This document shows positions 6,357-44,493 of a stretch of DNA of 64,000 nucleotides, piece after piece (within the stretch, counting starts at the first letter, position 1; every line of letters starts with the position of its first letter). This stretch comes from Chloroflexota bacterium (GTDB taxonomy: Bacteria > Chloroflexota > UBA11872): assembly GCA_965263175.1 (NCBI GenBank), contig OZ253587.1:234579-298578 (forward strand), in the 5' to 3' direction. A program made the translations under genes and the position numbers. The notes under the pieces are model-generated. The model made no database searches, had not been told where the DNA came from, and worked only from the letters and a program-made list of their open reading frames with translations.

Positions 6357-6731
6357 GCCGCGCGCCTCCCGTGGTCGTCCAGCCGGGCCTTGGCCAACAT
6401 GACCTTGGTGAATTGTGCCCAGTGACGCTGTACGAGGGCCTGGTCGGCCTCTGAAACTTGCGGGTAGTGGCTTAGTTTGACTTGACGAGCGGGCGACCAC
6501 TCCGACCGCGGCGCGTCAACAGCATTATTGTTACGCTCCCGGCACCAGGTGGATTCAATTACGAGTAGGCGGCCTCGGCCGGGGTCGCTGGGAGCAATCC
6601 GCGTGGTAACGGGTCGTCGCCCCAGTGGTTCGTCCGGAGCCGCCTTTCTTCGCGGTGCCCTCGGGAGTTCCCACGTGCCGCGCACCTTGCCACCTCTGTT
6701 GTCAGCAGATTGCTGACGGCGGAGGCGGGGC

Positions 6732-7856
6732 ATGAACCGAGACTCGAAGCGCCCCAGGGGTTGCCGCGGCTGCCTCGGCCTCCTCGTGGTGATCGTGGCG
6801 ACCAGCTTGGTCGCCGCCTGGTTCCTCGTCGGTGAGCCGGCCGCTCCTGCCGACGAGGCGCCACCGGCACCCACGGAAACGGCGACACCGGCTGGACTGA
6901 CTCCAGTTGGTGCGACCTGGACCATCACGTCCGATGCCGTGCGCGACATCACGAACTATCGGTTTGTCGATGTCGTACTTAGCCAGCGGGTATCCGAACC
7001 GGACCTAACGGCCATTGCGCAACGCATCCGGCAGCAGAGTCCAGACCATCCCGTGGTCCACATCCTGTACTGGATCGAGGGCATGGACTCGGACAGGGGC
7101 GCGTGGGCGACTACCCGATTTGAGCACGGCCAACCGGTCAATGTCAGGATTAACGATCACCTTCTCACGCCGACCGCAACGCCGCAGTCCACGCCGACTC
7201 CGCAACCCACCGCCGCACCTCGCCTGACGCCCACGCCAACCGTACAGGTCACGTACTCCACCTGTGACGATGTGCCCACCTACTTGCTCCGCCTTGATAC
7301 GCAGGGGCGCATCGCCGTTGAGGGCCGGTTCGTCCCAAGCCAGCCAGATGGCGATGGCGATGGCTTCGCCTGCGGGGATCAGCTCGAGCACAAGCGGGGG
7401 CTGGTTCGGTCTACCCCGGCGCCGACGGCCACGACGACTCGAGCACCGCAAGCCTGCGACGCGTTCGAGCGAACGTACCTCCGAGTGCTTGAGCAGAACA
7501 TTCAAGCTATCGGTGCCGGCGCTCTGCTCCTCGTGGACCTATTCCAGCGGCTTGAACAGAATCCGAGCCTGCTCCAAGACCTCGATTTCAGGACTGAGTT
7601 CGCGATCATTGGTGGCCGGATGAATGGCGTCGGGAAGGAAATCCTCGATAGACCGCGCCCTCTGTCCCCTCGCTTTGCCTTGATTCACGACCGAGCCCGC
7701 ACGATGGCCCGTTCACTCAAGGCTGGGCTCGACGGAATGATGGACGTAATCAGTCGCGTTGACAGTGCCGCGATCATTACCGGCAGCGATCAGGTCGAGG
7801 CGGCCGGGAGAGAAATCCGAGCTATCAGGCATATGGCGGAGGGTGTTTGCGCGTAG
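6732..7856 (+). CDS. membrane-anchored Pro/Thr-rich surface protein with excalibur-like Ca-binding motif
   Basis: N-terminal TM helix, PTATP linkers, and YSTC...DGDGDGFACG. Confidence 0.75.
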   Translation: MNRDSKRPRGCRGCLGLLVVIVATSLVAAWFLVGEPAAPADEAPPAPTETATPAGLTPVGATWTITSDAVRDITNYRFVDVVLSQRVSEPDLTAIAQRIRQQSPDHPVVHILYWIEGMDSDRGAWATTRFEHGQPVNVRINDHLLTPTATPQSTPTPQPTAAPRLTPTPTVQVTYSTCDDVPTYLLRLDTQGRIAVEGRFVPSQPDGDGDGFACGDQLEHKRGLVRSTPAPTATTTRAPQACDAFERTYLRVLEQNIQAIGAGALLLVDLFQRLEQNPSLLQDLDFRTEFAIIGGRMNGVGKEILDRPRPLSPRFALIHDRARTMARSLKAGLDGMMDVISRVDSAAIITGSDQVEAAGREIRAIRHMAEGVCA

Positions 7857-7866
7857 GCGCTAAAGC

Positions 7867-7900
7867 CAGCAGGGGTCGCCTGTATAGGCGACCCCTGCTG
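7867..7900 (+). terminator. hairpin terminator
   Basis: 15-bp perfect stem CAGCAGGGGTCGCCT-gtat-AGGCGACCCCTGCTG just after the stop codon. Confidence 0.7.
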
Positions 7901-8196
7901 TGCGCGCAGCGGTAAAATGGCGTGCTAGCGTAGGTCCAGCGAATAGCTTACGGTTCGCGACATAGCGACAACAGGTATCGCGAACCTTCCGGCAGCGCCC
8001 GCCGTGAATGGTGGGCGGCTGCTGCGTCTCAGAAAGGCCGCACCGTGAGAATACTCAAGTTTCTCGCCTGGCTGTTCGGCCCTGAGGCGCGCAAATTGTG
8101 TGCGCGCATGATCCGGCAAGTGCTCGCTGGTCTGGCGCATCTCGCGCGTTGCTTCGCGCCGCCGCGTTACGTGCAGCTCGCACTCCCGCTTTAGCT

Positions 8197-8403
8197 ATGG
8201 ACGCACAGAAGCAGCGGGTCGCCGAACTCGAAGCGGAACTTGCCGCGTTGAAACGCTATCTGCATGCATGGCACATTCCGTTCCCCAACGACGGCATTGA
8301 TCGGCGCTTTGGCGTGCCGCGCAGTGTACGCACGCCGCTCTATGACGGGCCACTGACGACTATCCAGGTGCTCGCAGATCCAAATCGAACGATGCATGGG
8401 TGA
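8197..8403 (+). CDS. small hypothetical coiled-coil protein
   Basis: MDAQKQRVAELEAELAALKR; its stop overlaps the next ORF start (GTGA). Confidence 0.4.
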   Translation: MDAQKQRVAELEAELAALKRYLHAWHIPFPNDGIDRRFGVPRSVRTPLYDGPLTTIQVLADPNRTMHG

Positions 8404-8849
8404 TAGCTGTGGTTCCTCCTGACCTCGCCCATGCTGTGGCTTACGTCCAGCTCGTGCAGCACGGCCTATTCGCCCTCATCGCGTGGGTTTCGGTCGGTGT
8501 CTATGGGTCGTTTTACGTGCTACGAAGCCTCGCAACCCCACCGCGACCTCGGCTACGCGAAAATGCCCTTGAGCGTCTTGGCGGACCTGCTTCGATGCTG
8601 CTGGTGGCGCATCTGACGCTGGACAGTATCGATTTCGATGAGGAGTCGCCTCCGCACACGCTTGAAGCGATTGAGCTTCCTGCGTCTCCGCTGGAACTGC
8701 CGCTGTTGTCCCTGGTGGTCTGCGGGGTGTTCGGCGTCTTGTCGGTGGTCGTGCTGGTATTCGTCGCGTTCATCGGCAGCCGTAGCTTTCGGGTACGGCG
8801 CCTCGTAGCGCTCTCACTACTTCGCACTCGCCCGCACTGGACCCAATAG
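8400..8849 (+). CDS. hypothetical membrane protein
   Basis: Two to three hydrophobic segments; coupled to the upstream ORF. Confidence 0.45.
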   Translation: MIAVVPPDLAHAVAYVQLVQHGLFALIAWVSVGVYGSFYVLRSLATPPRPRLRENALERLGGPASMLLVAHLTLDSIDFDEESPPHTLEAIELPASPLELPLLSLVVCGVFGVLSVVVLVFVAFIGSRSFRVRRLVALSLLRTRPHWTQ

Positions 8850-9428
8850 CTGCTTGGCGGGTGGCCTGGGCCAACGGGACCATGCCACCGCCGTCCAATT
8901 CCTGACCGACCTGGGGCACCGCAACCCTGGCCAGTTCCAACTCTCAACGGACGCCGCGTCCTTCTACTTCGACGCCGCTTGGTAGGCCTTGGGCGGCCAC
9001 GGGGACTACGGGCAAATCTGGAAGCACACCGTGCCGCGCAAAAAGGCAGCGTCCGTCCCGAAGGTCGAGCGGACGCCCATCGTGGTGCACGGTCGACCCG
9101 ACCCCGATCACATCAACGCGTCGTAAATCGAACGGCACAGCCCGACGATGCGGATGTCAATGTGGCGCTACACGCGCCGGACGAACGCGTTCAGCAAGAA
9201 GGTCCAGAATCACGCCTTGCGGTCGCGACGTACATGTTCCACTGCAACTTCTGCCGACCGCACGGGACGCTGACAAAGGATGCCCACGGCAAGCCGACGA
9301 CGCCCGCGATGGCGGCTGGGCTGGCAGGTGGTCGTTGGACGATGGCGGACCTGGTTGATCTACTTGAGGGGCGAGAGGACGATGCGGTCGCCGTCGCGCG
9401 GCGGCGGAAGGATCGCCGATCAAACTAA
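8833..9428 (+). pseudogene. truncated, frameshifted IS1-family transposase
   Basis: Fragments GQRDHATAVQFLTDLG, GQFQLSTDAASFY (then a stop) and [25 protein letters not shown] align to 48-962. The HTH and DELW region is missing. Confidence 0.88.
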
Positions 9429-9502
9429 GCCACTACCAACTTGCGGGCGGGGCTGCGCGGGCGCATCCTGATGGGGACGACACGTAAGGTCCCAGCACCG
9501 CT

Positions 9503-9775
9503 ATGGCTACGAGAAACGGCTCGCTTTCTCACTTCCCGCCGCACCTGAAGGTCCAACGGCTCAGCGACGTCACCCGCACGCTGCGGCGCCGGATCGAGCG
9601 GTTCGAGTTGCGCTACGAGATGTCCACCGCGGAGATGCTGGAACGGACCGCCACGGGCGAGATGCGGGAAACGGCGGAGATTTCACGATGGCAATACGAC
9701 GCGGACGTGCTCGCCGACCTGACCGGCCCCGCGGCGAAAAGCACGGCTGGCTCTGGTTCGACCGTTACGAACTGA
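9503..9775 (+). CDS. putative antitoxin (TumA-like)
   Basis: IERFELRYEMSTAEML...GEMRE...W pattern; overlaps the downstream toxin-like gene. Confidence 0.6.
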   Translation: MATRNGSLSHFPPHLKVQRLSDVTRTLRRRIERFELRYEMSTAEMLERTATGEMRETAEISRWQYDADVLADLTGPAAKSTAGSGSTVTN

Positions 9776-10179
9776 TCCATCGGGAAGTCCTGGCCGCCCA
9801 CCCGTTTGTGATTGCGGACCGCACGCAGTTCGTTCCGGTTGCGAACAGGCTTGGCCGTATGCGCTGTATGGGCCTCATTGCCTGCCGGGGCGGTATTGAG
9901 ATCGAGGTTGACAAGCACCTCGCCGTTCGCAGCGTCGACAATCGCACCCAGGTCCGGGGCTTCAAGTACCGGTACCACGCGCGAATCCGGGAGCGAGGGT
10001 CTGCACGGAACGCCCTCCGCTACGACAGCGGCCACGCCCACACGCCCGACGTGTATCACCGTCACGAATACGACCCGGAAACCGGCCACGACCGCCTGAC
10101 CACAATGACTCGCGAGGAGTTCCCGGTTCTGCGCGAAATGGTGGACGAACTGGCGGAGATGTTCCACCACGCCACGTAA
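9688..10179 (+). CDS. putative toxin (TumE/DUF6516-like)
   Basis: YRYH...LRYDSGHAH...YHRH motif; true start uncertain. Confidence 0.6.
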   Translation: MAIRRGRARRPDRPRGEKHGWLWFDRYELIHREVLAAHPFVIADRTQFVPVANRLGRMRCMGLIACRGGIEIEVDKHLAVRSVDNRTQVRGFKYRYHARIRERGSARNALRYDSGHAHTPDVYHRHEYDPETGHDRLTTMTREEFPVLREMVDELAEMFHHAT

Positions 10180-10412
10180 GGCCGGGTTCGACAGGCAACG
10201 GCGTCTCGTTGTCAGGGCTTCATGGCGCGTTGAGCACACGTCGGCCTGTCGGCTTCAGGAAACGGGTCTCATCGTTGGCTCACTCCGGCGTGGCCACGGC
10301 TTCATGGCGGGCACACAGCGAATCAGGCGGCGCCGGGGCTATATCCGAGCGCACCGATAACGCTCAACTGGAGTGCTCGGCCAGATACAAGCGGGGACTG
10401 CGGGTAACCCGG

Positions 10413-12134
10413 TCAGGCGACCGTGAGCGCGCCTTCGGCGTGGAGTTCCTGCAGGGTTTCGGTTACCAGCGTGCGGACGGCGGCGGCGGACTTGCCTACA
10501 GCGGAGCCCCAGGCTTCGGTGGCGTCGTCCACGATCTGCTGGCCGGTTCGGGATCCATCCAGCAGCCGCAGCAGTGACGTGGCGGCGATGGAAAGGAAGT
10601 GGGCCTTGGTGCTGTCGCCGTCCGGAATCTCGACCAGCGTGGCCGGACGCAGCACGTCTTCCTGGTCGTTGAGCATGTAGGGCTGCCACTGCACCCCTTC
10701 GATCCACCTTGGCACGCCGCCAAGCATTTGCTCGACCGTGACCGGCTGGTAGTCCCGCGCCTGCCGCTCCTGCTCCAGGTAGTCCTCCAGTTGCTCTTGC
10801 TGCCCGTCGCTGAGTTCAAGCTCGAAGTTCTGGTAAATGATCTTGAGCTGTTCGGGACTGAAGCCGCCGGCGTGCTTGAGCTTCAGGTGGCTGGTGGCGC
10901 CGGGGCTACGAGAGACCCCGGCGGCGATGAGCGAGAACGCCTGTTGCAGCGAGAAGCTCTGCGACGGGTCGACGATCCGCCGGGCCTGCCAGAACCAATC
11001 GTCGCGGTTGCGTTCGCCGTGATACCAGTGTAGGGCCAGTTCCAGGAAGTCCTGCGCCGTCTTGCGGTATTCGCTGTCGTACCAGTGCATCCCCAGCGGT
11101 TCCAGTTCGGGCTGGCGCAGCACGGCGGTTAGGGTCAGCGCGGCGCGAATGGCCCCGTTCATCGCCAGCGCGATGCCGGTGGAGAGCACCGGGTCCACAA
11201 AACAAGCGGCATCGCCGCAGAGCATGTAGCCGGGACCGTGAAACGACTTGCAGAAGAAGGACCAGTCGCTGTCCATCTCCACGCGGTCTGAGATCCACTC
11301 CGCCGGCCCCAGCAGGCGCAGCAATTCCGGCGTAATGGCCACGTTCTCAAGGAAGAACTCGACCCGCTGGTCCGGATTCATTCCGCGCACGTGGCTGGGG
11401 TCGGTCACGAAGCCAACGCTACTGATTTCGTCGGCCAGCGGGATATGCCAGAACCAGCCGGCCGCGCTGGACACGATGTGCAGGTTGCCGTCGTCGTTGA
11501 GCGTCAGATCGGGATAGATTTCGGAAAGTTTGCGGGCGCCGCGGTAGTAGCCGGAGAGGGAGACGTGACGCATCTCCTCGTTGAACTCCCGCAGGTTGAA
11601 ACGTTTGCCCAAAAGCGACGACTGGCCCGAGCAGTCCAGGATGTAGCGGGACAGCAGCTTGCCTTCGGTCCCGTTGGGACCGCGCCAGCGCAGCCCGGAT
11701 ACGCGTCCGCCCAACTGGGTGACGTCCGTGACCTGGGTTTCCTCCCAGACGGCGGCGCCGCAGGCCTCGCTGTGGTCCAGCAGGATTTTGTCGAAATCGG
11801 CCCGGCGTACCTGGAAGGCAAAGAAGGCGTCGTCGATCATTTCCGAGAACCGCAGGGTCCAGGGTTCGCGCGAACGGCCCCAGATGTAGGTGGCGCCGTA
11901 CTTGCGGACGAAGCCAGCCTGCAAGACCTTGTCGGTGATTCCCATTTGATCGAGCGCCAGGAAGGCGATGGGTAGCAGCGATTCGCCGATGTGCTCGCGA
12001 GGGAAGCGTTCGCGCTCGAGCACGGCGACCCGGAACCCGGCGCGTGACAGCAGGGTGGCGGCGGTGGATCCGGCCGGTCCGCCGCCAATGACGGCCACGT
12101 CCACCTTCAGCCCGTCGACCGGGTGGGTACTCAT
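10413..12134 (-). CDS. flavin-dependent halogenase (CmlS/PltA-type) with C-terminal winged-helix (PqqD/RRE-like) domain
   Basis: GGGPAG, FPREHIGES, GFVRKYGA (catalytic Lys), GWFWHIP (WxWxIP), DWS, GDAACFVDP; C-terminal LLDGSRTGQQIV...LQELHAEGAL. Confidence 0.88.
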   Translation of the reverse strand: MSTHPVDGLKVDVAVIGGGPAGSTAATLLSRAGFRVAVLERERFPREHIGESLLPIAFLALDQMGITDKVLQAGFVRKYGATYIWGRSREPWTLRFSEMIDDAFFAFQVRRADFDKILLDHSEACGAAVWEETQVTDVTQLGGRVSGLRWRGPNGTEGKLLSRYILDCSGQSSLLGKRFNLREFNEEMRHVSLSGYYRGARKLSEIYPDLTLNDDGNLHIVSSAAGWFWHIPLADEISSVGFVTDPSHVRGMNPDQRVEFFLENVAITPELLRLLGPAEWISDRVEMDSDWSFFCKSFHGPGYMLCGDAACFVDPVLSTGIALAMNGAIRAALTLTAVLRQPELEPLGMHWYDSEYRKTAQDFLELALHWYHGERNRDDWFWQARRIVDPSQSFSLQQAFSLIAAGVSRSPGATSHLKLKHAGGFSPEQLKIIYQNFELELSDGQQEQLEDYLEQERQARDYQPVTVEQMLGGVPRWIEGVQWQPYMLNDQEDVLRPATLVEIPDGDSTKAHFLSIAATSLLRLLDGSRTGQQIVDDATEAWGSAVGKSAAAVRTLVTETLQELHAEGALTVA

Positions 12135-13969
12135 GCGAGGGCTTTCAGCCTGGCATGCGCCTGCGCGAGGTTGCCGCTGATCATCGCATGCTGCTGCGGG
12201 TAGGAGGCCGCGTTGAAGACGGCCGCGGCGGCCTCAAAACCGCGGACGGCCTCCGCCAGGGCCTGGGCGTCGCTGCCGCGCTGCATGAGGGCGACCGCCA
12301 GGTTGAAATGCACGCTGGCGGACTCCATCGGGTGGGACTCGACGTCGTAGGTCTCGGCTGACGCTCGGTAGGCCTTGATCGCGGTGGCCAGCAGATGCGG
12401 CTCGCCACGCGCGGCCTGGGAGGCGAGCGCCATGCCCAGCAGCATTTGCGTCTCGGCATGGGCCACCGGATCGGCGCTGGGGGTCCGGTCCTTCAGCGCC
12501 TGTTGCAAGTGGGCCGCGGCCTGCGTCAGCGCCTGGGACGAGGCGGCGCCGGATTCCAGGCCGAGGCGTCCCAGCAAGTGGTGCGCGCGCCCGACCAGCG
12601 CCCGATCCTCGTCAGAGGCCGTGATGGCGCGGTCCGCGGCCGCGGCCGCGCGCCGCAGGTTGTCGGCGCGGTCGCCGTCGGGGCGGGCGGCCAGGGCTTC
12701 GGCCAGCGCGACCTGCAGCGACGCGTAGGCCACGGGTTCGGCGTCGCGGTTGATGGTGTCCAGCCCGGCTTCGAACGCCTCCACGGCCGCGCGGACGTTC
12801 GAGGTTCGGTCACCGACGGTGGAGGCCAGCAGCGCCGAGCCCAGCGTGAGGTTTACGCGGGCGTATTCGGTTGGAAATTGGGCGCGCGGGAACGCCGACA
12901 GCGCGTGCCGGCTGAGCTCGATCGCGCGATCGAGGCGCGGCTGGGTGGGCGCCGGAGCTTCAAGCATTACCTGCGGCGCCTCGATCAGCGCCGGCGCAAC
13001 CAGCGCGGTGGATCTCACCCGCGGCGCCAGTTCGATCGCGGCCTCGAAGTGGCGCAGCGCGGCCACGCAGGCAGCTTCGCCGCCGCCGGCCACCTGCTCG
13101 GCCCACAGCCGACCAAACCCGAGTCGCAGTTCCGCGTGACGGTCGGGCTGCTGCTCGGCCGGGGCCTCGGCCAGGGCGCGGTCAAAGTCCTGGGTGGCCT
13201 GGTCGAAACGCGACGGATCCTGCGCCGTCAGTTCAACCTGCGTGAGCGCCGCTTCGGCGAGGGCGGCGGAGCGAAGATCGTCGCGGTCACCGTCGGTCGC
13301 CACGTCCGCCGCGCGCGTGAACGCGTCCACCGCCGCGTCCAGGTGGCTGTGGCGACTTCCTTCCAGCTGCACGCGAAGGGCCTGCCCGAGCGCCAGCAGG
13401 AACTCGGCGTGCTCGGCCGGATGGGTTTCGGGGGGAACTGTCTGCAAGAGGCCACGGTATGCCGTCACGGCCTGTGCTCGTGACCGGGCATCAGGCGTGG
13501 CTGCCAGGACCGCGGCCACGTTGGCGCGCGCCCGTGCGTGATCGACGGGCGAGACGTCGGGCGAAAGCGCCTCCAGCACGCTCTCGAAGCAAAAGCGGGC
13601 GGACTCCAGTTGCCCCCCCGCCCAATTGGCCAGACCCAGACCGTGGTACGCGCGCGCGTAGGCTTCCGGAAACTCGTCGCGGTTGAAGACGACAATCGCC
13701 TTCTGATAGCAGTCGATGGCCTCGGCTAGTAGGTCGGGGTCGCCAAGACGTGCCCGCAGGCTCAGCGTGTCGGCCAGGTCCAGGTGCAGCGCGCCGAACT
13801 CCACCGGAAGGACGGCCAGCTCGAACGTGGCCGCGGCCTCGACCAGAAGGTCGGTGGCCGCGCGCAACTGCATGATGTCGCTGGTGTTGCGGAGTTCGCG
13901 CGCCCGCAAGATTTTTTGACGCGCCGCAGCCAGACCGGCCGGGTCGGGTACGCGCGACTCGAGCTCCAT
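12131..13969 (-). CDS. TPR-repeat protein (~40-aa repeats)
   Basis: Recurring AI..Y..A..V....P..YA....LG pattern; ATGA overlap with the halogenase. Confidence 0.82.
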   Translation of the reverse strand: MELESRVPDPAGLAAARQKILRARELRNTSDIMQLRAATDLLVEAAATFELAVLPVEFGALHLDLADTLSLRARLGDPDLLAEAIDCYQKAIVVFNRDEFPEAYARAYHGLGLANWAGGQLESARFCFESVLEALSPDVSPVDHARARANVAAVLAATPDARSRAQAVTAYRGLLQTVPPETHPAEHAEFLLALGQALRVQLEGSRHSHLDAAVDAFTRAADVATDGDRDDLRSAALAEAALTQVELTAQDPSRFDQATQDFDRALAEAPAEQQPDRHAELRLGFGRLWAEQVAGGGEAACVAALRHFEAAIELAPRVRSTALVAPALIEAPQVMLEAPAPTQPRLDRAIELSRHALSAFPRAQFPTEYARVNLTLGSALLASTVGDRTSNVRAAVEAFEAGLDTINRDAEPVAYASLQVALAEALAARPDGDRADNLRRAAAAADRAITASDEDRALVGRAHHLLGRLGLESGAASSQALTQAAAHLQQALKDRTPSADPVAHAETQMLLGMALASQAARGEPHLLATAIKAYRASAETYDVESHPMESASVHFNLAVALMQRGSDAQALAEAVRGFEAAAAVFNAASYPQQHAMISGNLAQAHARLKALA

Positions 13970-14000
13970 GAGTGGCGCGCCCCTCGGAGGAGCCTTGGCT

Positions 14001-14468
14001 CTATTCGCCGCCCGAGGCGCTGGACATCAGCTTGTCCAGGTTGGCCAGCGCCTCGTCGAACTCGCGCTTGATTCGGCTTCGACTGGTGAGCGAGCGGATC
14101 ATGCCGAGCGGGCCGCCGCCCGACCAGGTGCCCGTGAGGGTGATCTCCGTATTGGCGGCGCTGGGCCGGAGGTCAATGACTGTCCGCACGTTGTGGAGCG
14201 AGCCAACGTCGCGACCGCCTTGCACCTCCCGAACGATTCGCCAGGCGATTCGCCGCGAGTTGTCCCAGGCCACGATGCGTTGATGGACTTCCACGCCGCC
14301 TTCCATTTGAACCACGTGCTCTCTACCGAAAGCCTTGGGAGGCCCACTGGTGTGCTCAATCGATATCACACCAGGCAGCCAGTCGGGCATCCGGTCGAAA
14401 TCAGACAGCAGATGCCAGACGAGTTCCTGTGAACCGGATACCACCTGGCGGGCAACGACTTTGGCCAT
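14001..14468 (-). CDS. SRPBCC (START-like) family protein
   Basis: VWHLLSDFDRMPDWLPGV and a C-terminal helix ALANLDKL. Confidence 0.82.
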   Translation of the reverse strand: MAKVVARQVVSGSQELVWHLLSDFDRMPDWLPGVISIEHTSGPPKAFGREHVVQMEGGVEVHQRIVAWDNSRRIAWRIVREVQGGRDVGSLHNVRTVIDLRPSAANTEITLTGTWSGGGPLGMIRSLTSRSRIKREFDEALANLDKLMSSASGGE

Positions 14469-15963: not shown

Positions 15964-16263
15964 GTGGCAGGCAGTCTTGACGAGGTGCAGCGTCTGATCT
16001 TTGCCGTCGTCCATCGGGACGATGCCGACGGGGTGACCCAGGCCCTTGTGGAATCCGGTTACCGCGCGACCCGCATCGACGCTCAAGGCGGTTTCCTGCG
16101 CCGGGGCAACGCGGTGTTCATGGTGGGCGTAGCCGCCGAGCAGGTGGATGACGTGATCGAACGGGTTCGCGGCGCGGCGCGGCGCGCCTCGGGACAATCC
16201 AAGGGCGGATCGGCCTACGGCGTCGTGTTCGTGGTGCGTGTGGACGCCTTCGCCCGCCTGTGA
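15964..16263 (+). CDS. cyclic-di-AMP receptor-like PII protein (DUF970), short form
   Basis: TRIDAQGGFLRRGNAVFMVGV; lacks the long loop of DarA. Confidence 0.78.
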   Translation: MAGSLDEVQRLIFAVVHRDDADGVTQALVESGYRATRIDAQGGFLRRGNAVFMVGVAAEQVDDVIERVRGAARRASGQSKGGSAYGVVFVVRVDAFARL

Positions 16264-16287
16264 GCGCCCAGGCGATGGGAGCGCACG

Positions 16288-16626
16288 ATGCCTGATCCCG
16301 TGGCCTATGACCGCATGGTGCTGTGCGTGGTGCAGGACGATGACGCTGGCGAATACTCCAACGCGCTACGCGAGGCTGGGATATCCCATACGCGCGTGGC
16401 CAGCGCCGGAGGCTTTCTTCAGGCCACCAATGCCGTGTTCATCGTGGCGCTGGAGGCTGCGCGCCTGGAGGAACTCAAAGAGGTCACCGCTCGTACCTGC
16501 GTTACGCGCACCGAGCTGGTAACGCTGCCCTGGACCGGCGAAATCGACCTTTCGCTGCCGGTCGAGGTCGAAGTGGGTGGCGCGGCGATGTTCGTGCTGG
16601 CGCTGGAGCACGCCGAGCGGCTCTAA
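16288..16626 (+). CDS. darA: cyclic-di-AMP receptor DarA/PstA-like protein
   Basis: TRVASAGGFLQATN and PVEVEVGGAAMFVL. Confidence 0.82.
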   Translation: MPDPVAYDRMVLCVVQDDDAGEYSNALREAGISHTRVASAGGFLQATNAVFIVALEAARLEELKEVTARTCVTRTELVTLPWTGEIDLSLPVEVEVGGAAMFVLALEHAERL

Positions 16627-22971: not shown

Positions 22972-25900
22972 GTGGTCATCGCGGGGCTGGCCGCCGGGTT
23001 GGTGCTGGCGGCGGCGCTGATCGGTGGGCAGACGTCGCTGCGAGCGCAGGCGGCGGCCGAGGGGCCGGGCCCTGCGGTGGGCATCAGCCTGCGCGACCTG
23101 AGCGAACAGCCCACGCATACGACCGTCGACCGCTTCATGGTGGACGTGGCCAATCTCAGCGCGGCGGAGGCGTACCAGGTCAGCGTGTCGGGCAGCGCCG
23201 CCACCCTCGGGATCGGCGGGTGCGGGACGGCCTCGCAGACGCGGACGGTGACGGGCGTGGAGGCCGAGACCCTCACGTTCCTGCTGTATGCCTGCGCGGT
23301 GGGGGGGCGGGACGGTGACGGCGGAGGTGCGCCGGGCCGGGTCGAGCAGCAGCGAGGCGTCAGTCAGCCAGGGCCTGCGCGTGGAAGCGATTCCGGCGTC
23401 CGTGCCCGAGGCCGAGCGGGGGGCGCAGGGAGCGGCGGCGCAGGTGGGGACGCCCGGGATTGTGCCGAGTATCAGCTTCGATCGGATTACGACCACCTCA
23501 GTCCGGGCCAACTGGCGCGCGCCGAGCGACGGCGGGCGGGCGCTCACGGGTTTCGGGCTGCTGTTCTGGCGGGCCGCCGATCCGCAGCCACCCTATAGCC
23601 GCGCATTCGTGGCCGGCGCCGGGTCGCGCAACCATATCTCTGCCGGGTTGCAGCCGGACACGAGATATAAGTTCCGCATCCACGCGTGCAACGGTCCCGG
23701 CAGTTGCGGCTGGTGGTCGGACGCCAAGGCCGTGACCACGCGGGCGCCGAGCCGACACCGACGCCGACGCCGACCTCGCCGCCCACGGTGGGGCGGCCGG
23801 GCCGCGTAGACGGGCTGCGCTATAGCAACCGGACGGGGACCTCGTTCACGGTGCACTGGCGCGCGCCGCACGACGGCGGGCGGGCGCTGACGGGGTTCGG
23901 CATCCTGCGGCGGGAGGATCCGGGCGCCTGGCCGCCGCATAGCCAGGCGGCGGTGGTGGGGCCGGGGCGGCGCAGCTATACGTTCACGGGGCTGGCGTAC
24001 GGGCGGGGGCAGGCGGTGCAGATTCGGGCCTGCAACGGGCGCGACCGGTGCGGGGCGTGGTCCAGCGAGTTGCGCGTGCCGCCGCTGGCGGGGCCGCAGC
24101 CGTCGCTGCGGCTGCCGAAGGAGACGATCGCGATTGGGGAGCGGATCAAGGTGGGGGCGTACGACGTGCCGGTGGGGGAAGTGGCCTACATCCAGCTGGA
24201 GGGGCCGATCCAGCCGGCCGGGCGCTGCTCGGCGCGGGCGGCGGGAGCGGACGCGGTGGCGCGGGCGCCGCGGCCGTCGACGGGGCCGGGGTACTACGAC
24301 TCCATGTGGATCGACGGCTGCGCGCCGGGCGGGACTGCGACGATCCGGCTGGAGCGGCAGGACAGGTCGCGGGTGTTCGCCAGGGCGACGCTGACGGTGG
24401 CGCCGGCGGCGACGGAACGGCCCGGGCGGGTGGCGCGGCCGCAGGTCACGGCCTACAACGCGGCGCTGGAGGTGACGTGGCGCCCGCCGAGCGACGGCGG
24501 GGCGCCGGCCCATTACGACGTGCGGCATCGGCCGGGGACGTCGGGCGGCTGGCGCGAGCGGCAGTCCCTGGACGACGGGTCCATGATCCTCGACCAACTC
24601 ACCAACGGCGTGACCTACCAGGTGCAAGTGCGGGCTTGCAACACGCACGGCTGCAGCGACTCCTGGTCGAAGACCGCCACCGGCACGCCGAGCGGCGCCG
24701 CGCCGGACCTCCCCGATCCGCCTGGGCCGGACCCGACGCCGGTGGTGGACCTTCCAGACTGCGGCGGCGTGGCGACTCGCGACCACACGGCGCCGACCGG
24801 GCTCAACGTGATTCCGCTGTCAGGGCATCAGGTTCGCCTGACGTGGACTGGTTCGACGGGCACGACCGCAGGCTACACCGTCGAGTTCAATCCACACGGA
24901 GCCAATTGGCCCGAGAAAGTCCCTGATAGCAATAAGAAATCGGTGGTCCAGAAAGTCACGTCGACTGGCCCAATAAAAACTTGCTTGGACTTTAGCCTCG
25001 ACTCAATGATTAGCAGAGCCCCTCAAGACGGAGATGGCCTCGCAGACAACGCCGCCTACGACATTCGAGTGAGGGCGAGTAAGACTGTTCTAGATCAGAC
25101 AGTGGAGTATGTGAGCGAGGCGATCACGATTATTGACACCCCGATCACGAAGGCCGACGGTTACGTGCCGGCATCGCAAACGCTTCCCATCGTCGGCCAG
25201 GCGGATTTCACATGGACGGCGGTAACCGATGTCCTTGGCGATCAATACGCCGACGGCACGTACATCCTGCGGCCTCGACGCCTCGCCGACCATCCTGCAA
25301 GTGCGAGTTGGCGACCGAATGCGTATGCCGCCGCTAATCCTGACGATACTGCGCCGACCGCGGCAACGGAGCAGACAATCGCTGGGCTGGCACCCGATGA
25401 AATCTACGCTGTTCAGCTGATCTACCTGCCAGATGACAGTGCGAACACCAATGACGCAATGGTCTTTTCCGGTCGAGACGTCTACGTGTGGCCGGCGACC
25501 ACGCAACTCCTTGTGCCTGGATCGGGGACCAGCAAACTCTTCGCGAGATTTCCGGTTAAGAGTAGGATGCCGAACACGACGTATGACTATTTCATCTGTA
25601 CCGACACATTTACCGAAAACGCTGACACGCAGGCGGCCAGGGATAGGCGACAGGCCTGGGTCCGATTCATCGTCCATGCGCTGGAACAATGGGAGTTGGC
25701 AACGAATGACACGGTCGCCATGACCTATCTCGGCGAGTCATGCACGGACTTTCAGCCACTTGTCGACATGGCCGCGAAACGAATTGCGCATCTTTTGCCG
25801 ACCGAAAAAAGCAGCATTGAAAGGCATCTGACCAAATTCGTTCAACACGAATGGCACTCGCAGATTCTGCCGGCAAATACGTCTGATCGTGACAAGAACG

Positions 25901-26523
25901 AGATTATGATGTTCGACGACTACGGCGACTACCCTGAAGGGAGCACGTTGTACTTCGCCTTTACGGAGGCAATGTCGAATGAACCAGTGATAGAAACGGA
26001 TTATCCTGAGGGTCTAGAACGAATAGGCAAGTTTGGCAACCGTTTAGGATTCGTTGCGAGCACGACTTGCTGGGGAGAGACGTCCACGGTTGAGGCCGTA
26101 GCGTGTGCGCATTTCAGCAAGCGGGGATCATCGCCAGGTTACACCACAGACATCGTTCTACGGCGCACGCGAGTGGATCATGATCCACTCGCGATTCCCG
26201 GCGGCACCGCGGACCTTGACAGAGATGGATTCCCTGATGTTGATCTCGGCGATGTGGTGTTCAATGCGTGTCCAAGTATGGGTCGTTATACGGAATGGAT
26301 TCCGTATGATGCCCAAAAGAACCGTGACAGCAGCATATACGGCACATTAGTCCATGAGGCAGGGCACGCGCTCGGCATTGCCCATCCACTTGGAATTGAC
26401 GATAGGACGGTGGCGGTAACAGTGTCTTTTAAGGATACGGTTATGACTGGTGGTAAGACATACAGTTGCTTCCCTCATCCGTTAGACGTGTTGCTAGTGT
26501 ATGCGCTGCACCGCGGTAGGTGA
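22972..26523 (+). pseudogene. secreted FN3-repeat protein with C-terminal zinc-metalloprotease motif, split by two frameshifts
   Basis: Signal-like N-terminus; FN3 repeats (W.AP.DGG...Y...IRACN..C..WS) across three ORFs; HEAGHALGIAH. Frameshifts at the G7 tract 23301-23307 and near 23748. May be an intact CDS if these are read errors. Confidence 0.75.
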
Positions 26524-26530
26524 GGGCCAC

Positions 26531-28888
26531 GTGACTCCACGACGCTCAGTGCGATCGCGAGACATAGGGGCTCGGCTGGGGGTGTCGCTCGCGATGCTGC
26601 TGGTGGCCATGCTATGCGGCGTGGGATGTACGCAGCCAGCGGCCTCCCACGGAGCTGACAGGCCATCGCCCGGGCCTGAACTAACCGCGATGATGGGTGC
26701 AACGTCGCCGGCCGTCGGGTCGGTCGAAAATCCGGGCGCAGCGAGTGGATCGGCGCCACCGGGGGGAAGCGGCGTGGCGCCGCAGGCGCACGGGTCGTGG
26801 CCGCCCTTCTGTCTCAAACCGAACTATCACCTGTATGGATTCCCGGGAGATCGGCTGCTCTACAGCTCTTCTGGCAAGCCGCGCGGCGTGCAGACCGCAT
26901 TGCGGTGGAGTCGCGACGGGTCGGAGGTGCTGTTTGCAAGCGGTGCCCAAGTCTACGCCGCGACGGCTGACGGATCGCGCTTGGATCGACTGATCGATGC
27001 GCCCGCAAAGGCCTATCTGGACCAGTCGCGCTACGCGACGCAACCGATTACCGCAGTGTCCACGAGCCCCGACGGCGAACGCATCGCCTATGCCAGTTGT
27101 TACTCGTATGCGCCGAACTGGACCAATCCGAGGGATCCTGACGTGGCGCGCTGCCGACGTGGGTTGCACTTTGGCGCCGTAAATACGGACGATGAACGCT
27201 CCTGCCACGAACTCCCCTTGATAGTCCGCGACTATGCGGCGGGGCCGGTGCGGCTGACGCCTGGCGATGCGTTCGACGAAGTCCTGCTGTGGGATCGACC
27301 AAGCAAGACGACGCTGCGGCTGGCCGGTGGGTACGCGCCGGCCTGGTCGCCCGACGGCACGCGCCTGGCGTTCCTGTCCCGGTATAGCGACGCGTACGAC
27401 CCGGACCGGAAGGTCGGCGTTCGCCGGCGGGTGCCAGGGCTGTACGTCATGTCGGCGGCCACCTGGGAGCTGCAGTCGCGCGTGTCTGCCAACGTCACCC
27501 GGCCGCCGCGCTGGTCGCCGGATGGGCGGCTCCTGGCCATCGTCGAGGAGACGGGCGCCGAGGCCACGCTCTCCGTGGTGTCGGCCGATGGCAAGGGCCG
27601 GCGGCGGCTGTCGGAAGCGCGCAGCGATCCCGCGTGGTCGCCGGACGGGTCGCGGATCGCCTTCGTGCGAGCCGAGCGCGGCGAGTTTGTGCTCTACACC
27701 ATCGCGCCGGACGGGACGGACGAGCGGCGGATCACGGCCTACCGGAACTCGCGTGACTGGTGGGATCAGTCCGTGGCGTGGTCGCCGGACGGCACGATGC
27801 TGCTGTACGGGTGTGGGGGGATCTGCGTGGTCACGCGGGACGGGCTGCGCGTGGGGTGGCGAACGCTCGCGTCACGGGAGGGCTACAGCGCGGCCTGGTC
27901 GCCCGACGGCGCCCGGATCGCGATCCTGACCGTGGACGGAACGTGGGGCGACGATCGGGTACTGGTTACCACGGCGGCCGACGGCGCCGAGCCCCAGGTC
28001 CTGGTGATCCACGACGACGAGCACGGCCTGCTGGGCGTTGGAGTTCAGGGAGACAGCGCGCCGGTGGACGTGGCCGGGTGTTTGGCCGGGAAGGCGGTTG
28101 CATCGCCGGCGGCCAATCCCGGGCTGGTAAGCGACTGCGAAGTGCTGCTGCGGGCCCGGCCGGTTTTCGCGGGGAGTGTGCCGGCGGCCCTGAACTGGAG
28201 TCCCGAACGGCCGATCGCGGAGTGGGACGGTGTGGTGGTGGACGGGACTCCGCCACGGGTGGTCGAGTTGACGTTACCTGCATCCCGCGCCAACGGCCGG
28301 ATTCCCCCGGAGTTACATGGGCTGACGCAGCTGCGCGAGTTGGATTTGCGCGGTCTGTATCTGGGCGGCGAACTTCCGCCGGAACTGGGCGAGCTGAAGA
28401 ACCTCCGAGCCCTGCGCCTGTCAGTCTCCTACATCCACGGTCCCATCCCGCCGGAATTGGGTCAGCTGGCGCAACTGGAGGAATTGTCGCTGTGGTACAC
28501 GTACCTCAGCGGGCCGATCCCAGCCGAACTGGGCGGGATGCGGCAGTTGAAATCCTTGGGGCTTCGCCGTTCGTTCGTCTCCGGGCCCATCCCGCCCGAA
28601 TTGGGCCGGCTGGCGAACCTGGAGGGCCTGGGCCTGCAAGACAATAGGCTCACGGGGCCGATTCCTGCCGAGTTGGGGCAGCTAGCGAATCTGCGCAGGC
28701 TCGTTCTGAAGAGCAACCAGTTGACGGGGCCGATCCCGTCCGAACTTGACGCGCTGACGAGGTTGGAGCGCCTGGAACTCGGCGGAAACCTGTTGACGGG
28801 CTGCGTCCCGCCAGGGCTGGCCGGCTTGAGTCCCGCGCAAACAGATCTGGATGACCTGAGGCTGCCGAGTTGTGAGGCGACGGCGTGA
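26531..28888 (+). CDS. secreted TolB/PD40 beta-propeller plus plant-type LRR protein
   Basis: Multiple PAWSPDG repeats and 24-aa LRRs of the form LxGPIPxELGxLxxL. Confidence 0.9.
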   Translation: MTPRRSVRSRDIGARLGVSLAMLLVAMLCGVGCTQPAASHGADRPSPGPELTAMMGATSPAVGSVENPGAASGSAPPGGSGVAPQAHGSWPPFCLKPNYHLYGFPGDRLLYSSSGKPRGVQTALRWSRDGSEVLFASGAQVYAATADGSRLDRLIDAPAKAYLDQSRYATQPITAVSTSPDGERIAYASCYSYAPNWTNPRDPDVARCRRGLHFGAVNTDDERSCHELPLIVRDYAAGPVRLTPGDAFDEVLLWDRPSKTTLRLAGGYAPAWSPDGTRLAFLSRYSDAYDPDRKVGVRRRVPGLYVMSAATWELQSRVSANVTRPPRWSPDGRLLAIVEETGAEATLSVVSADGKGRRRLSEARSDPAWSPDGSRIAFVRAERGEFVLYTIAPDGTDERRITAYRNSRDWWDQSVAWSPDGTMLLYGCGGICVVTRDGLRVGWRTLASREGYSAAWSPDGARIAILTVDGTWGDDRVLVTTAADGAEPQVLVIHDDEHGLLGVGVQGDSAPVDVAGCLAGKAVASPAANPGLVSDCEVLLRARPVFAGSVPAALNWSPERPIAEWDGVVVDGTPPRVVELTLPASRANGRIPPELHGLTQLRELDLRGLYLGGELPPELGELKNLRALRLSVSYIHGPIPPELGQLAQLEELSLWYTYLSGPIPAELGGMRQLKSLGLRRSFVSGPIPPELGRLANLEGLGLQDNRLTGPIPAELGQLANLRRLVLKSNQLTGPIPSELDALTRLERLELGGNLLTGCVPPGLAGLSPAQTDLDDLRLPSCEATA

Positions 28889-31800
28889 GGCAGGCGTTGC
28901 GGACAATGCGAGGACGGCTCAGTGGCGGCCCAGGACGCCTCGGGGCGCTGGCTGTGCTTGGCCTGCTCGTGGTTGCGGCCGGCATGGGTTGCGTCGGTTA
29001 CGCGACGTCTGATCATCCAGCGGCGATGGAACCGGGAGTTGCTGGGGCCAGTTCGCCGCCCGCCCGCGAGGTCGTCAGCACTGGCAGTTACAGGGCGCAG
29101 GGCCTCGGCGCGGCCGACGCGATCGGTGGTCGAGTCGGCGCGGCGGCCGCGTCGACGGGCCGCGAACCGACGGTGGAAGAACTGTTGGAGGAGGGGTTGG
29201 GTCGAGCCGACGCCTCGCCGGTGCACCTGGCGATCCGGGGGACGCCGGCGGCGGACGCGGTGCGGTGCGCGTGGCGCGGGGTGGCGCGGACGGCGAAGCA
29301 ACGGGAGGCGGCGATCCGGTTCTTGCTGGGGTTGGATTCGGACGATCCGGTGCCGAGCGTGGCGTATCTGGAGACGTTCTTTGCCGTCGCACTGGACACC
29401 TGGAATCCCGAGTATCGGGAAACCTCGAAGGCCCATTTTCTCGGGATCGCACAGGGCGGGGTGTCGACGGAGTACCTGTTCCTGACCTGCTTCGCCGACT
29501 ACACAGTTACCAACTTTCTGCTGGGCAGTGGCACGACGCCGGCGACGGTGACGGTGGCCTACGACCGGCGAGCGCAAGCGCGCTCGTACGACCTGTACGT
29601 GCGGGAGCACGACAGCGGCACCTTCGGCGACGCAGCATTGCCGACGCGGGGCGCGTACGAGGCGTCGCTGCAAGAGCTTGTCGTGGCGGCGGAGGAGGCC
29701 CTGGCGGCCGAGATCGGGGGGCGGGAGGCGGTGGTCTTCCTGGCCCCCATGGGCGCCCACAACGCGATCGGGTTCGAGGCCTGGCAGGCGGTGGCGTCGT
29801 GGGCGGTGACGACGGACGACCAGGGAGTGACGCAGGCGGTGCGCGACGACACGCCGGCGGGCGACCCGGAGCACACCCAGACCCTAGCCAACCTGAGCAG
29901 CCGGATCACGGCGGCGGCCGGGAGCGACGCCTTCGCGGGGCAACGCATCGCCAACGTGAGCGGCTTGCAGCAGAAGTACCGCGATATGGGGGCCTACGGG
30001 GACATCACGCCGGGGGACGGGCAGACGACGACGTTCACGCCGGCCCAGCCGCCGGCGGCGCCGACCTGCGCCAACGGCGTGGCGGTTCCGAACCCCGCCG
30101 CCAACCGGGCGCTGGTGCAGGACTGCGAGGCGCTGCTGGCGGGGCAGGGGACGCTGGCGAGCAAGGCCACGCTGAACTGGAGCCCCGACACGGCGCTGAG
30201 CGGCTGGACCGGCGTCACCACCGGCGGCGCGCCCAGCCGCGTCACCGGCCTCAACCTGGCCGGCCAGCGCCTGACCGGGACGATCCCGCCGGCGCTGGGC
30301 CGGCTGTTCCAGGTGACGACGCTCAACCTCAGTTCCAACCAGTTGACGGGGGATATCCCGGCGGCGCTGGGCTGGCTGGACCACCTGACCGAGCTGCGGC
30401 TGTCCGGGAATACGCTGACCGGCTGTATCCCGCTGGCGCTGCGGTCGGTGGCGACTAACGACCTGGGGGCGCTCAGCCTGCCGTACTGCGAGCCGCCGGC
30501 GTTCGAGGCGGCGAGCTACGCCTTCAGCGTCCCCGAAAACGCGGTGGCGGGCGAGCTGGTGGGGACGGTCAGGGCCACGGACCGCAGCGGCGAGCCGGTG
30601 ACCTACGCGCTCGCCGAGGGCGAGGGGGCCGCGACGTTCGCGATCGACGCGGCGAGCGGGACGATCACGGTGGCGGGGGCGCTGGACCGGGCGGCGACGC
30701 CGAGCTACGCCCTGACGGTGACGGCCACGGACGGCCGCGGAGACGCGGCGACGGCGCCGCTGACGATCACGGTGACGGACCCCGTCCCCCGGCTGCCCGC
30801 GGCGCCCGAGCACCTGGCGGCCACGCCCGAGCCGACGGGGATGGTCCTGCAGTGGGCGGCGGCGCCGGGGGCGCGCGTCTATGGGGTGGACTACCGGGCC
30901 CGGGGGGGCGACCCGCGGTGGATCACGGCGGACGACGCGATCGCCGCCTCGCCCTACACCGTGCAGGGGTTGGGCTGTAGCACGGTCTACGAGTTCCGGG
31001 TGCGCGCGTATGGGGACGGCGTGACCACGACCGCGGGCTGGGGCGCGGCGTCGGCGCCGGTGACGGCCCGGACCGGCGGCTGTCCGCCGCGGTTCAGCGC
31101 CCCGGCCTACGCCTTTGCCGTGGCCGACGACGCGGTCGTGGGAGCGCTGGTGGGGACGGTGGCGGCCACGGCAATCCCGGCCGGGGGCGCGCTGACGTAC
31201 AGGCTCACGGCCGGCAACGCCCTGGGGCATTTCGCCCTGGGGGCGGACAGCGGGCAGATCACGGTGGCGGGCGCGTTGGACGCCGCGGCGACGTCGGCCT
31301 ACGCGCTGACGGTGCGGGCGGACGATGGGCGGGGCGGCGTGGCCACGGCGCCGGTGACGATCGCGGTGAGCGCGGCCGGCGTGCCGCTGCCCGAAGTGAC
31401 GGTGGCCTTTGGGCAGGCGGCGTACACGGTGAGTGAGGCCGCGGCGGAGGGCGTGACCGTGACGCTGACGCTGAGCGCCGTGCCGCTGCGGGAGGTGACG
31501 ATCCCGCTGACCGTCAGCCTCCAGGGCGGGGCGGCGGCGGCGGACACCACGGGCGTGCCAGCCAGCGTGACGTTTGCCGCCGACGCGACGATGGCGAGTT
31601 TTCAGGTGATGGCCGTGGACGACACGCTGGACGATGACGGGGAGAGTCTCCAGCTCGGGTTCGGGGCGCTGCCGTATGCGGTGACGCCGGGCGCGGTGGC
31701 CGTGACCACGGTGACGATCCAGGACGACGACGAGCTGGCGTTCGCGGGGGCGCCGTATGCCTTCACGGTGGCCGAGGACGCGGGCGTGGGCACGGTCGTG

Positions 31801-43767: not shown

Positions 43768-43992
43768 GTGATATCCAGGCGTCGAGCCATTCGTGGTGCG
43801 CCGGTTGTGCTGGCGGCCTTGGGCATGGGCGCGGTTGCTGCGTGCAGCGGCTCCGACAGCGACGCTCCCGGGCAATTCAACTTTCCCAGGGTTCGCGATG
43901 GGCATCAGTACTACCTTTCCGAAGAGGAACGCGCGAAACTGCAGAAGCAGGCCGCCGGTGGCTACACTCCGACCGCCGCGGCCGGTAGCTAG
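43768..43992 (+). CDS. tiny Tat-lipoprotein, paralog 1
   Basis: AGGAG RBS plus GTG start; SRRR and VAAC lipobox; shares PG..FP.R and SEEER.KL with its neighbours. Confidence 0.72.
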   Translation: MISRRRAIRGAPVVLAALGMGAVAACSGSDSDAPGQFNFPRVRDGHQYYLSEEERAKLQKQAAGGYTPTAAAGS

Positions 43993-44010
43993 CAAGCTCG
44001 GCTGGGACGA

Positions 44011-44226
44011 GTGTTGTCACGGGGGGCTTTGCTCAGGTTCGCCCCGATCGCGGCGGCTGGGCTTGTGGTGCCGGGCGCCTGCGGTAACCGGACCGATGAG
44101 CCGGGCGGCTACGCGTTTCCCAGGCAGCGGCCCAGCAGCACCGACAACATGAGTGAAGAAGACCGCGAGAAGTTGCGCCAGCAGTCGTCGGATCGGTCTC
44201 AGCCATCGGCCACAGCCGGAAGTTAG
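44011..44226 (+). CDS. tiny lipoprotein, paralog 2
   Basis: SRGALL...GACG, then TDEPGGYAFPRQRPSS and MSEEDREKLRQ. Confidence 0.72.
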   Translation: MLSRGALLRFAPIAAAGLVVPGACGNRTDEPGGYAFPRQRPSSTDNMSEEDREKLRQQSSDRSQPSATAGS

Positions 44227-44247
44227 ATGCCCGCGAAGGTCCGGCTG

Positions 44248-44493
44248 ATGTGTTCGCGGCGGGCGCTGCTGCGCCTGGCGCCGGCTGCTGTGGCTGGCTT
44301 GGCGGTCCTGGGCGCCTGCGGCAGCAGTACCGATGAGCCGGGCGGCTACGCGTTTCCCAAGCAGCGGCCCAGCAGCGACGACTACATGAGCGAGGAAGAG
44401 CGCGAGAAGCTGCGCCAGAAATCCGCCGCTGACGCCGCCGAACGCGAGCGCCAGAAGGCCCAGCAGTCAACTCCCGCCAGCGGAGGCGGCTAG
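44248..44493 (+). CDS. tiny Tat-lipoprotein, paralog 3
   Basis: SRRALL...LGACG, then TDEPGGYAFPKQRPSS and MSEEEREKLRQ. Confidence 0.75.
   Translation: MCSRRALLRLAPAAVAGLAVLGACGSSTDEPGGYAFPKQRPSSDDYMSEEEREKLRQKSAADAAERERQKAQQSTPASGGG

Follow-up and report, generated by a model that had tools for sequence, protein, structure and literature searches.

What a flavin-dependent halogenase acts upon when its C-terminus resembles the recognition element (RRE) of enzymes for peptides that are made on the ribosome and modified after translation (RiPPs), and when its gene overlaps that of a tetratricopeptide repeat (TPR) protein, is the question raised by a locus at 10413-14468 of the 64,000-nucleotide stretch considered here (the window; positions 234,579 to 298,578 of contig OZ253587.1, assembly GCA_965263175.1, Chloroflexota bacterium). 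The evidence set out below leaves about an even chance that the enzyme is a polypeptide-directed halogenase with a substrate encoded in trans and the TPR protein as adaptor. The residue halogenated is likely aromatic, either Trp or Tyr, with Cl or Br added, and the overlapping TPR protein is likely a dedicated adaptor of the halogenase.

The genome analysed (3.78 Mb, single contig, 95% complete) carries at this locus genes for the halogenase (573 aa, 10413-12134), an all-helical TPR-type protein (612 aa, 12131-13969) and an SRPBCC (polyketide cyclase 2) protein (155 aa, 14001-14468), all on the minus strand and all at the positions given in a first-pass annotation made from the letters of the window. 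The overlap of the TPR stop with the halogenase start (ATGA) also stood, being kept (as GTGA in two cases) in 19 of 19 orthologous loci listed, of 20, and the reported lack of a carrier protein, nonribosomal peptide synthetase (NRPS), flavin reductase or precursor near the halogenase was borne out in the window. As a correction, the halogenase called an orphan in that annotation belongs to a set of three paralogues in the genome (paralogue 1 of 3). The SRPBCC gene is syntenic with paralogue 1 only and is missing at the loci of paralogues 2 and 3; it was therefore rejected as a member of the halogenase-TPR module and is probably a syntenic neighbour outside it.

Judged by its motifs and Pfam score, the 573-aa protein is a flavin-dependent halogenase-type enzyme of the FasV/CndH branch. 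Its match to PF04820 (Trp_halogenase) scored 132 bits against a cut-off of 21, and GxGxxG and WxWxIP, given as the defining halogenase motifs in the accessible part of PMC6644159, were both confirmed in the translation. The GxGxxG motif for binding of flavin adenine dinucleotide (FAD) was read at residues 17-22 (12069-12086), the presumed catalytic Lys78, which aligns with the lysine of FasV, CndH and CmlS, at 11901-11903, the WxWxIP motif (WFWHIP) at residues 227-232 (11439-11456) and a DWS motif at residues 290-292 (11259-11267), each on the minus strand. Lys78 and WxWxIP were invariant in an alignment of 31 sequences, one row of which lacks the N-terminus and still covers the Lys78 column. 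The best solved relative was FasV (8ZOP; E 3.6e-78, 35% identity over residues 6-411, structural Z 55.1), followed by CndH, PltA, Mpy16, Bmp2 and ChlB4, and sequence matches to FasV, CndH and CmlS were confined to the core (residues ~10-413). The first-pass assignment as CmlS-like gave way to one in which FasV and CndH are closest, and orthology with CmlS was rejected from its equivalog NF033113 (252.8 bits against a cut-off of 900, match at 12-401 only). The DWS motif, which had been likened to the one holding the FAD-linked Asp in CmlS, is present, and its aspartate (D290) aligns with the CmlS aspartate that we take to be the flavin-linked D277; DWS is equally present in FasV, however, and is therefore not diagnostic of a covalent flavin.

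The C-terminal region was predicted to form a separate domain. In a model of the full-length halogenase (predicted local distance difference test, pLDDT, 82.5), a poorly predicted linker (residues 408-441) preceded strands at 482-491, 494-505 and 508-515, helices at 518-523, 531-546 and 550-566 and a final strand, and residues 459-573 folded alone gave a pLDDT of 91.6. The domain of three strands, three helices and a wing strand was placed at residues ~475-572 (10419-10712, minus strand), so that the PqqD/RRE-like fold noted in the first-pass annotation agreed with the model while its start moved from residue ~500 to residue ~475. In a comparison against 48,161 representative chains, the top match of the tail was the protein lysine methyltransferase Rv2067c (Z 11.7), and further matches included PqqD (Z 9.9, root-mean-square deviation, rmsd, 2.2 over 94 aligned residues), the RREs of lasso B1 (Z 9.7), TbiB1 (Z 9.5) and PbtF (Z 9.1), PKMT2 (Z 9.0) and MINA53 (Z 8.9). 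The top structural matches of the tail are mostly peptide- or protein-binding domains. The tail of CmlS itself gave a Z of only 4.9, and the modelled tail, at Z 9-10 to PqqD and the RREs, is accordingly RRE-like and nearer RREs than the CmlS tail, rather than a match to the CmlS winged helix only, as had been considered beforehand. QhpG (7CTQ), with which a fold may still be shared, was absent among the tail-search matches listed.

The PqqD family PF05402 matched residues 514-569 with 15.1 bits, under the gathering threshold of 23.4, a profile of the family matched PqqD structures with E values of 0.047 and 0.071, and the PqqD-profile matches in the genome were exactly the three halogenase tails, all under the cut-off. 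A search of the ESM Atlas with the tail of homologue P0004 gave one lead (0.82), which was under the chance threshold. Pooled over 17 orthologues, the ratio of nonsynonymous to synonymous substitution (dN/dS) came to 0.06 in the halogenase core, 0.15 in its tail and 0.21 in the gene of the TPR protein, in pairs that all share the window sequence and hence are not independent. The tail is under purifying selection.

The association with TPR proteins was evident from all three paralogues. The genome contains three such halogenases and exactly three TPR-family genes, as detected with a profile of the three TPR types, one for each halogenase, and the same profile matched all 24 genomes of genus g1, that of the window, and none of the 33 other genomes of the order. 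The 612-aa protein matched TPR_12 with an E value of 5.7e-6 (26.9 bits against a cut-off of 30.1), and its nearest relatives outside the family were TPR and TPR-CHAT proteins. For paralogue 1 the TPR gene was directly upstream in 20 of 20 loci from Chloroflexota metagenome-assembled genomes, a count that by itself says little since the entire neighbourhood is syntenic in these loci. For paralogue 3, all 18 of a further 18 loci had an overlapping gene for a helical TPR-family protein of 290-340 aa upstream. In genome G071, paralogue 2 and a TPR gene of 616 aa overlap, and in the window genome the corresponding gene (TPR2, 569 aa) is intact at 8.5 kb from halogenase 2. A restriction-modification-like island (G000:C1:1746200-1754600, on the contig of the window) separates the two, and the junction is broken or expanded in most genomes of the genus. 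TPR2 was present in 21 of the 24 genomes, and the three without it were among the four that lack halogenase 2, the fourth being G526 (85% complete). The two genes were adjoining in six genomes, 2-9 kb apart in five, 92-347 kb apart on the same contig in three and on different contigs in six, and the TPR2 frame stays open even at 92-347 kb.

Within the order, halogenases of this subfamily were found in all g1 genomes and in four of the five of genus g5, and were not found in the other 28 genomes; full-length matches among 401 genomes of the phylum came from g1, g5 and g153 only. A tree was built under LG+G4 from the first 430 residues of 40 sequences, the other 36 of 76 in a quick tree being omitted. 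In it, one subfamily (support 99/97) consisted of two sister clades, g1 with g5 (100/99) and soil sequences with g153 (99/99), and the g5 halogenases were nested among the g1 paralogues. Genus g153 (L062, L064, L067-L069, P0020) was seen to carry three paralogues of the same halogenase beside sugar ABC transporter genes, without a TPR gene, and the g153 halogenases examined end in a SEC-C motif. In a metatranscriptome run labelled sponge metagenome, six contigs matched the window stretch, three of them at 95-99% identity, which suggests sponge as the habitat of close relatives; these matches are contigs at low depth and no proof of transcription or co-transcription.

Peptide genes were noted beside several relatives of the halogenase in metagenomes (the best 80 of 539). 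Thus, in the sister clade, L081, L082 and L154 lie 0.5, 0.5 and 4.4 kb, in three gene orders, from a 65-aa peptide with a Trp-containing C-terminus that matched the NHLP clan or Nif11 weakly (E 1e-4 to 1e-2, under the cut-off), and L083, which branches separately, lies near three peptides of NHLP-like type and two CPBP proteases. Two soil lineages of the sister clade therefore adjoin NHLP-type precursor peptides, in one of them with Trp-rich cores at the end, and this precursor link is new. The 65-aa peptide, with a polyprenyl-synthase-like gene behind it, recurs in 61 of 112 genomes of family f23 (including the unpublished G484) and is possibly an undescribed RiPP family; the pair (L082:3831-5126, L154:3434-4742, also L185-L199) resembles a Trp-prenylated peptide of the ComX/ComQ type. 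Elsewhere among the relatives, the L085 halogenase is fused to a PP-binding domain, L178 belongs to an NRPS-type cluster with three halogenases and a PP-binding/thioesterase gene, and, in the next clade out (support 88/82), L151 and L182 form part of a class IV lanthipeptide cluster whose precursor contains Trp. Two further arrangements were noted among RRE-bearing halogenases: a 63-aa peptide with repeated Val-Trp-Gly units, which looks like a multi-core precursor, directly upstream of one of them (L140:2140-2331), and a conserved operon that joins related halogenases to an ABC transporter, a GroEL-like gene of divergent sequence and a protein with propeller repeats (L076, L077, L180, L181, L183).

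A number of observations weigh against a polypeptide substrate. FasV, the closest solved enzyme, chlorinates a free polyketide according to the accessible part of PMC11420778. The predicted tail fold is also matched by the small-molecule carbamoyltransferases GdmN (Z 9.6) and NovN (Z 8.7), so that the fold alone is no proof of peptide binding, and CmlS aligns along the whole halogenase model (453 residues, rmsd 7.6); from these two results, the tail may be a structural lid. L081, L082 and L154 are 91-95% identical and therefore represent one lineage. The subfamily halogenase occurs in one of 169 genomes of the class of f23, there in an NRPS-type cluster; with the peptide common in f23 and the halogenase this rare, the latter would be an optional add-on or a chance insertion near a common operon. 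Of 19 metagenome halogenases positive for the RRE, ten are accompanied by luciferase-like monooxygenases, which points to small-molecule chemistry in a distant clade, although that clade is a more distant, separate branch with a weaker tail match. The gene order hydrolase, luciferase-like monooxygenase, RRE-tailed halogenase, often with MOSC, is conserved on many metagenome contigs and was noted in L090, L093, L094, L102, L103, L106, L116, L121, L130, L137, L143 and L075. The halogenase-TPR pairs, being within one genus, are not independent, and no TPR match was found in five of five g5 genomes or in the two g153 genomes searched. Conservation of the TPR linkage, on which the first-pass annotation depended, thus holds for all three paralogues in the genus but not across the family, and since other lineages have the halogenase without it, the TPR protein is a genus-specific accessory.

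The genome itself also speaks against this reading. The search for precursors proposed in the first-pass annotation found none of the NHLP, Os1348-clan or Nif11 kinds, profiles including NF038399, TIGR03793 and PF07862 giving chance-level matches in long frames only, and neither YcaO nor condensation domains were found in the 95%-complete genome. The one LanC-like gene (G000:C1:720158-721372) was rejected as part of a RiPP cluster, as it stands alone, flanked by oxidoreductases and an aminotransferase, and has neither a precursor nor a dehydratase beside it.

The alternative that survives these comparisons best is that a free small molecule is halogenated or oxidised, as by FasV, with the tail serving as a CmlS-type lid and the TPR protein as chaperone or regulator. 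It accords with the rank of FasV as best match in both sequence and structure, with the equivalent tail of CmlS and the recurrence of the fold in GdmN and NovN, with uptake and catabolism genes as neighbours, with the hydrolase and luciferase-like monooxygenase that the distant RRE-bearing clade follows and with the lack in the genome of a precursor of the kinds searched for. We nevertheless consider it rather unlikely, since the modelled tail is far nearer RREs than the CmlS tail, the luciferase-linked clade is a separate branch and the neighbouring gene families are abundant in the genome and vary between paralogues, whereas the TPR protein is constant. Thus, neighbours of the halogenase paralogues include solute-binding proteins, PhyH dioxygenases, sulfatases and a nucleoside hydrolase, and the genome holds 32 such solute-binding genes and 12-17 PhyH matches, with ~6% of all genes within 3 kb of a solute-binding gene.

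Substrates encoded in trans were also sought among genome-encoded polypeptides. Neither the window locus nor the two other paralogue loci gave a precursor peptide, the exception being a lipobox peptide of 41 aa that lies 2 kb from paralogue 2. The genome contains ~20 tiny lipobox peptides by our own gene calls (21 small open reading frames fit the pattern, a few clearly false), which are 41-95 aa long and often in tandem, with a signal peptide, Cys-Gly-Gly and a mature part of 15-55 aa that includes a conserved aromatic motif (examples at G000:C1 1814072-1815127, 2264937-2268392, 278385-279071, which is 43807-44493 of the window, and 1742247-1742372). One family of them is present in 7-14 copies in most g1 genomes, with only weak matches elsewhere in the order. 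As a substrate for the whole halogenase family these peptides were unsupported, strong matches being limited to g1 and those in the halogenase-bearing g5 being weak (E above 1e-7), and they are substrate candidates and no more. The solute-binding proteins that adjoin several paralogues are weak candidates.

A carrier-tethered substrate, for which an acyl chain on the genome's only fatty-acid acyl carrier protein (ACP) would be the likeliest case, with the RRE-like domain or the TPR protein docking the carrier, appears improbable. CndH and PltA act on carrier-protein-tethered substrates, and these enzymes, with Mpy16, Bmp2 and ChlB4, are the matches next to FasV; the PP-binding fusion of L085 and the PP-binding/thioesterase gene in the L178 cluster point the same way. 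The one PP-binding match in the genome, however, is an ACP in a housekeeping fatty-acid locus at least 0.9 Mb from all three halogenases, no NRPS condensation domain is present in the genome, and three paralogues with three TPR proteins fit one carrier poorly. That the enzyme is no halogenase but a QhpG/LodB-like flavoprotein, with hydroxylation or oxidation of a target-protein residue as its reaction, is very improbable, as it scored under both NCBIfam cut-offs (159.7 against 240 and 129.8 against 400), WxWxIP and the lysine of halogenases do not vary, and true halogenases outrank the QhpG structure (7CTQ, E 5.5e-7) by far.

The preferred reading, halogenation of a polypeptide, would proceed as follows. 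A separate flavin reductase would supply reduced FAD (FADH2) to the halogenase, halide would be oxidised, and Lys78 would relay the oxidised halide to the substrate, chemistry that follows the description of SrpI in the accessible part of PMC10858898; the genome encodes two flavin reductases, both far from the halogenase. The RRE-like tail would grip a leader-like strand of the substrate, RRE/PqqD domains being known to hold leader peptides in the cleft of strand 3 and helix 3, and each g1 paralogue would have acquired a TPR protein, either to recruit or hold the substrate or to serve as the substrate itself. In other lineages, a SEC-C tail, a carrier protein fused to the enzyme or an NHLP precursor next to it would take the place that the TPR protein has in g1. 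Peptide or protein halogenation with a TPR recruiter, as first proposed, is favoured by the RRE-like fold, the three pairs and the RiPP and carrier neighbours of the sister clade, and disfavoured by the results for a precursor in the genome and for the TPR protein across the family. A wider proposal is more doubtful and is offered tentatively: a widespread clade of RRE-fused halogenases of the phenol/carrier-protein branch may halogenate ribosomal peptides or proteins through targeting modules that can be exchanged for one another (an NHLP leader, a fused carrier, a SEC-C tail or a dedicated TPR adaptor), and the three halogenase-TPR pairs of g1 may halogenate proteins or the tiny lipopeptides of the genus in trans and away from any gene cluster, which would amount to genome-wide post-translational halogenation in a likely sponge-associated bacterium.

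Other features of the window lie outside the module. A variable insertion (6501-10412, no strand assigned) with a TumA/TumE-like pair and an insertion sequence (IS) fragment separates the halogenase gene from that of the nucleoside hydrolase. Among 20 related loci, the toxin-antitoxin pair (9503-10179) is present whole or in part in 8. The gene for nucleoside hydrolase is downstream of the halogenase in 20 of 20, within about 150 bases in seven. Two tandem PII-like genes (15964-16626), the first of which matches a cyclic-di-AMP receptor family, are conserved in the genus. At 48-1565, an IS-like transposase is followed by two 91-aa reading frames of which the genome holds several near-identical copies. 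Three large repeat proteins that look secreted (23686-33036) were judged by eye to be fibronectin-, leucine-rich-repeat- (LRR-) and cadherin-like, and proteins of this kind are often reported from sponge symbionts.

What is new here is the precursor-linked sister clade, the census of three halogenase-TPR pairs and the negative search of the genome for precursors. The accessible text of two RRE surveys names no fusion to a halogenase, the word 'halogenase' being used 0 times in PMC7470986 and once, in the references, in PMC12710340. Neither an RRE-fused halogenase nor a halogenase-TPR pair is described in these two surveys or in the accessible parts of PMC7876137, PMC10858898, PMC12537861 (SrpI), 10.1101/2025.01.12.632611 (ChlH), PMC12424672, PMC11420778, PMC6644159, PMC6306507, PMC9426513 and PMC2938197. 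Literature searches returned neither of the two; subscription journals and full RRE data sets lay outside them, and the data sets may list the fusion. The soil homologues have a candidate substrate next door (L082 and the 65-aa peptide), which makes the substrate question directly testable, and the conservation of three copies in a genus that has relatives in a sponge library bears on which symbionts make the halogenated compounds of sponges, a subject of PMC6644159 in the part available.

Compared with known systems, the window enzyme shares with FasV (8ZOP, the fasamycin halogenase) the catalytic core, the lysine, WxWxIP and DWS. FasV differs in its length (412 aa), in having no C-terminal domain and no known TPR partner and, by the accessible part of PMC11420778, in acting on a free aromatic polyketide. 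CmlS (3I3L) and CndH (3E1T) belong to the same branch, and CmlS has a C-terminal domain of winged-helix type that aligns weakly (Z 4.9); unlike it, the window tail is much nearer PqqD/RRE, and the sequence match to CmlS and CndH ends near 400-412. The peptidyl-Trp dihydroxylase QhpG (7CTQ) and the LodB/GoxB maturases are flavoproteins of halogenase-like kind whose target is a residue within a polypeptide, as is proposed here, but they add oxygen in place of halogen, are encoded beside their target and belong to families whose cut-offs the window enzyme does not reach. QhpG also has a C-terminal winged-helix domain, according to the available part of PMC7876137.

The enzymes nearest in proposed activity are SrpI, MibH, ChlH and MppI, which halogenate Trp in ribosomal peptides. 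The window gene differs from all four in its FasV/CndH branch and in having no adjacent precursor. These four belong to the tryptophan-halogenase branch. The substrate of SrpI is an NHLP precursor with a C-terminal Trp, resembling the peptides beside L081, L082 and L154, and SrpI is leader-dependent and, in the accessible part of PMC10858898, without an embedded RRE. In the available text of PMC12424672, the peptide-Trp halogenases listed are only these four, and the ammosamide cluster has a TPR protein without an assigned role. RRE-fused RiPP enzymes (PqqD, lasso B1, PbtF, LanB, YcaO) have the same fold of three strands and three helices as that predicted for the window tail. A halogenase that belongs to another branch and is guided by an RRE would, if true, provide a programmable tool for site-specific halogenation of peptides and proteins.

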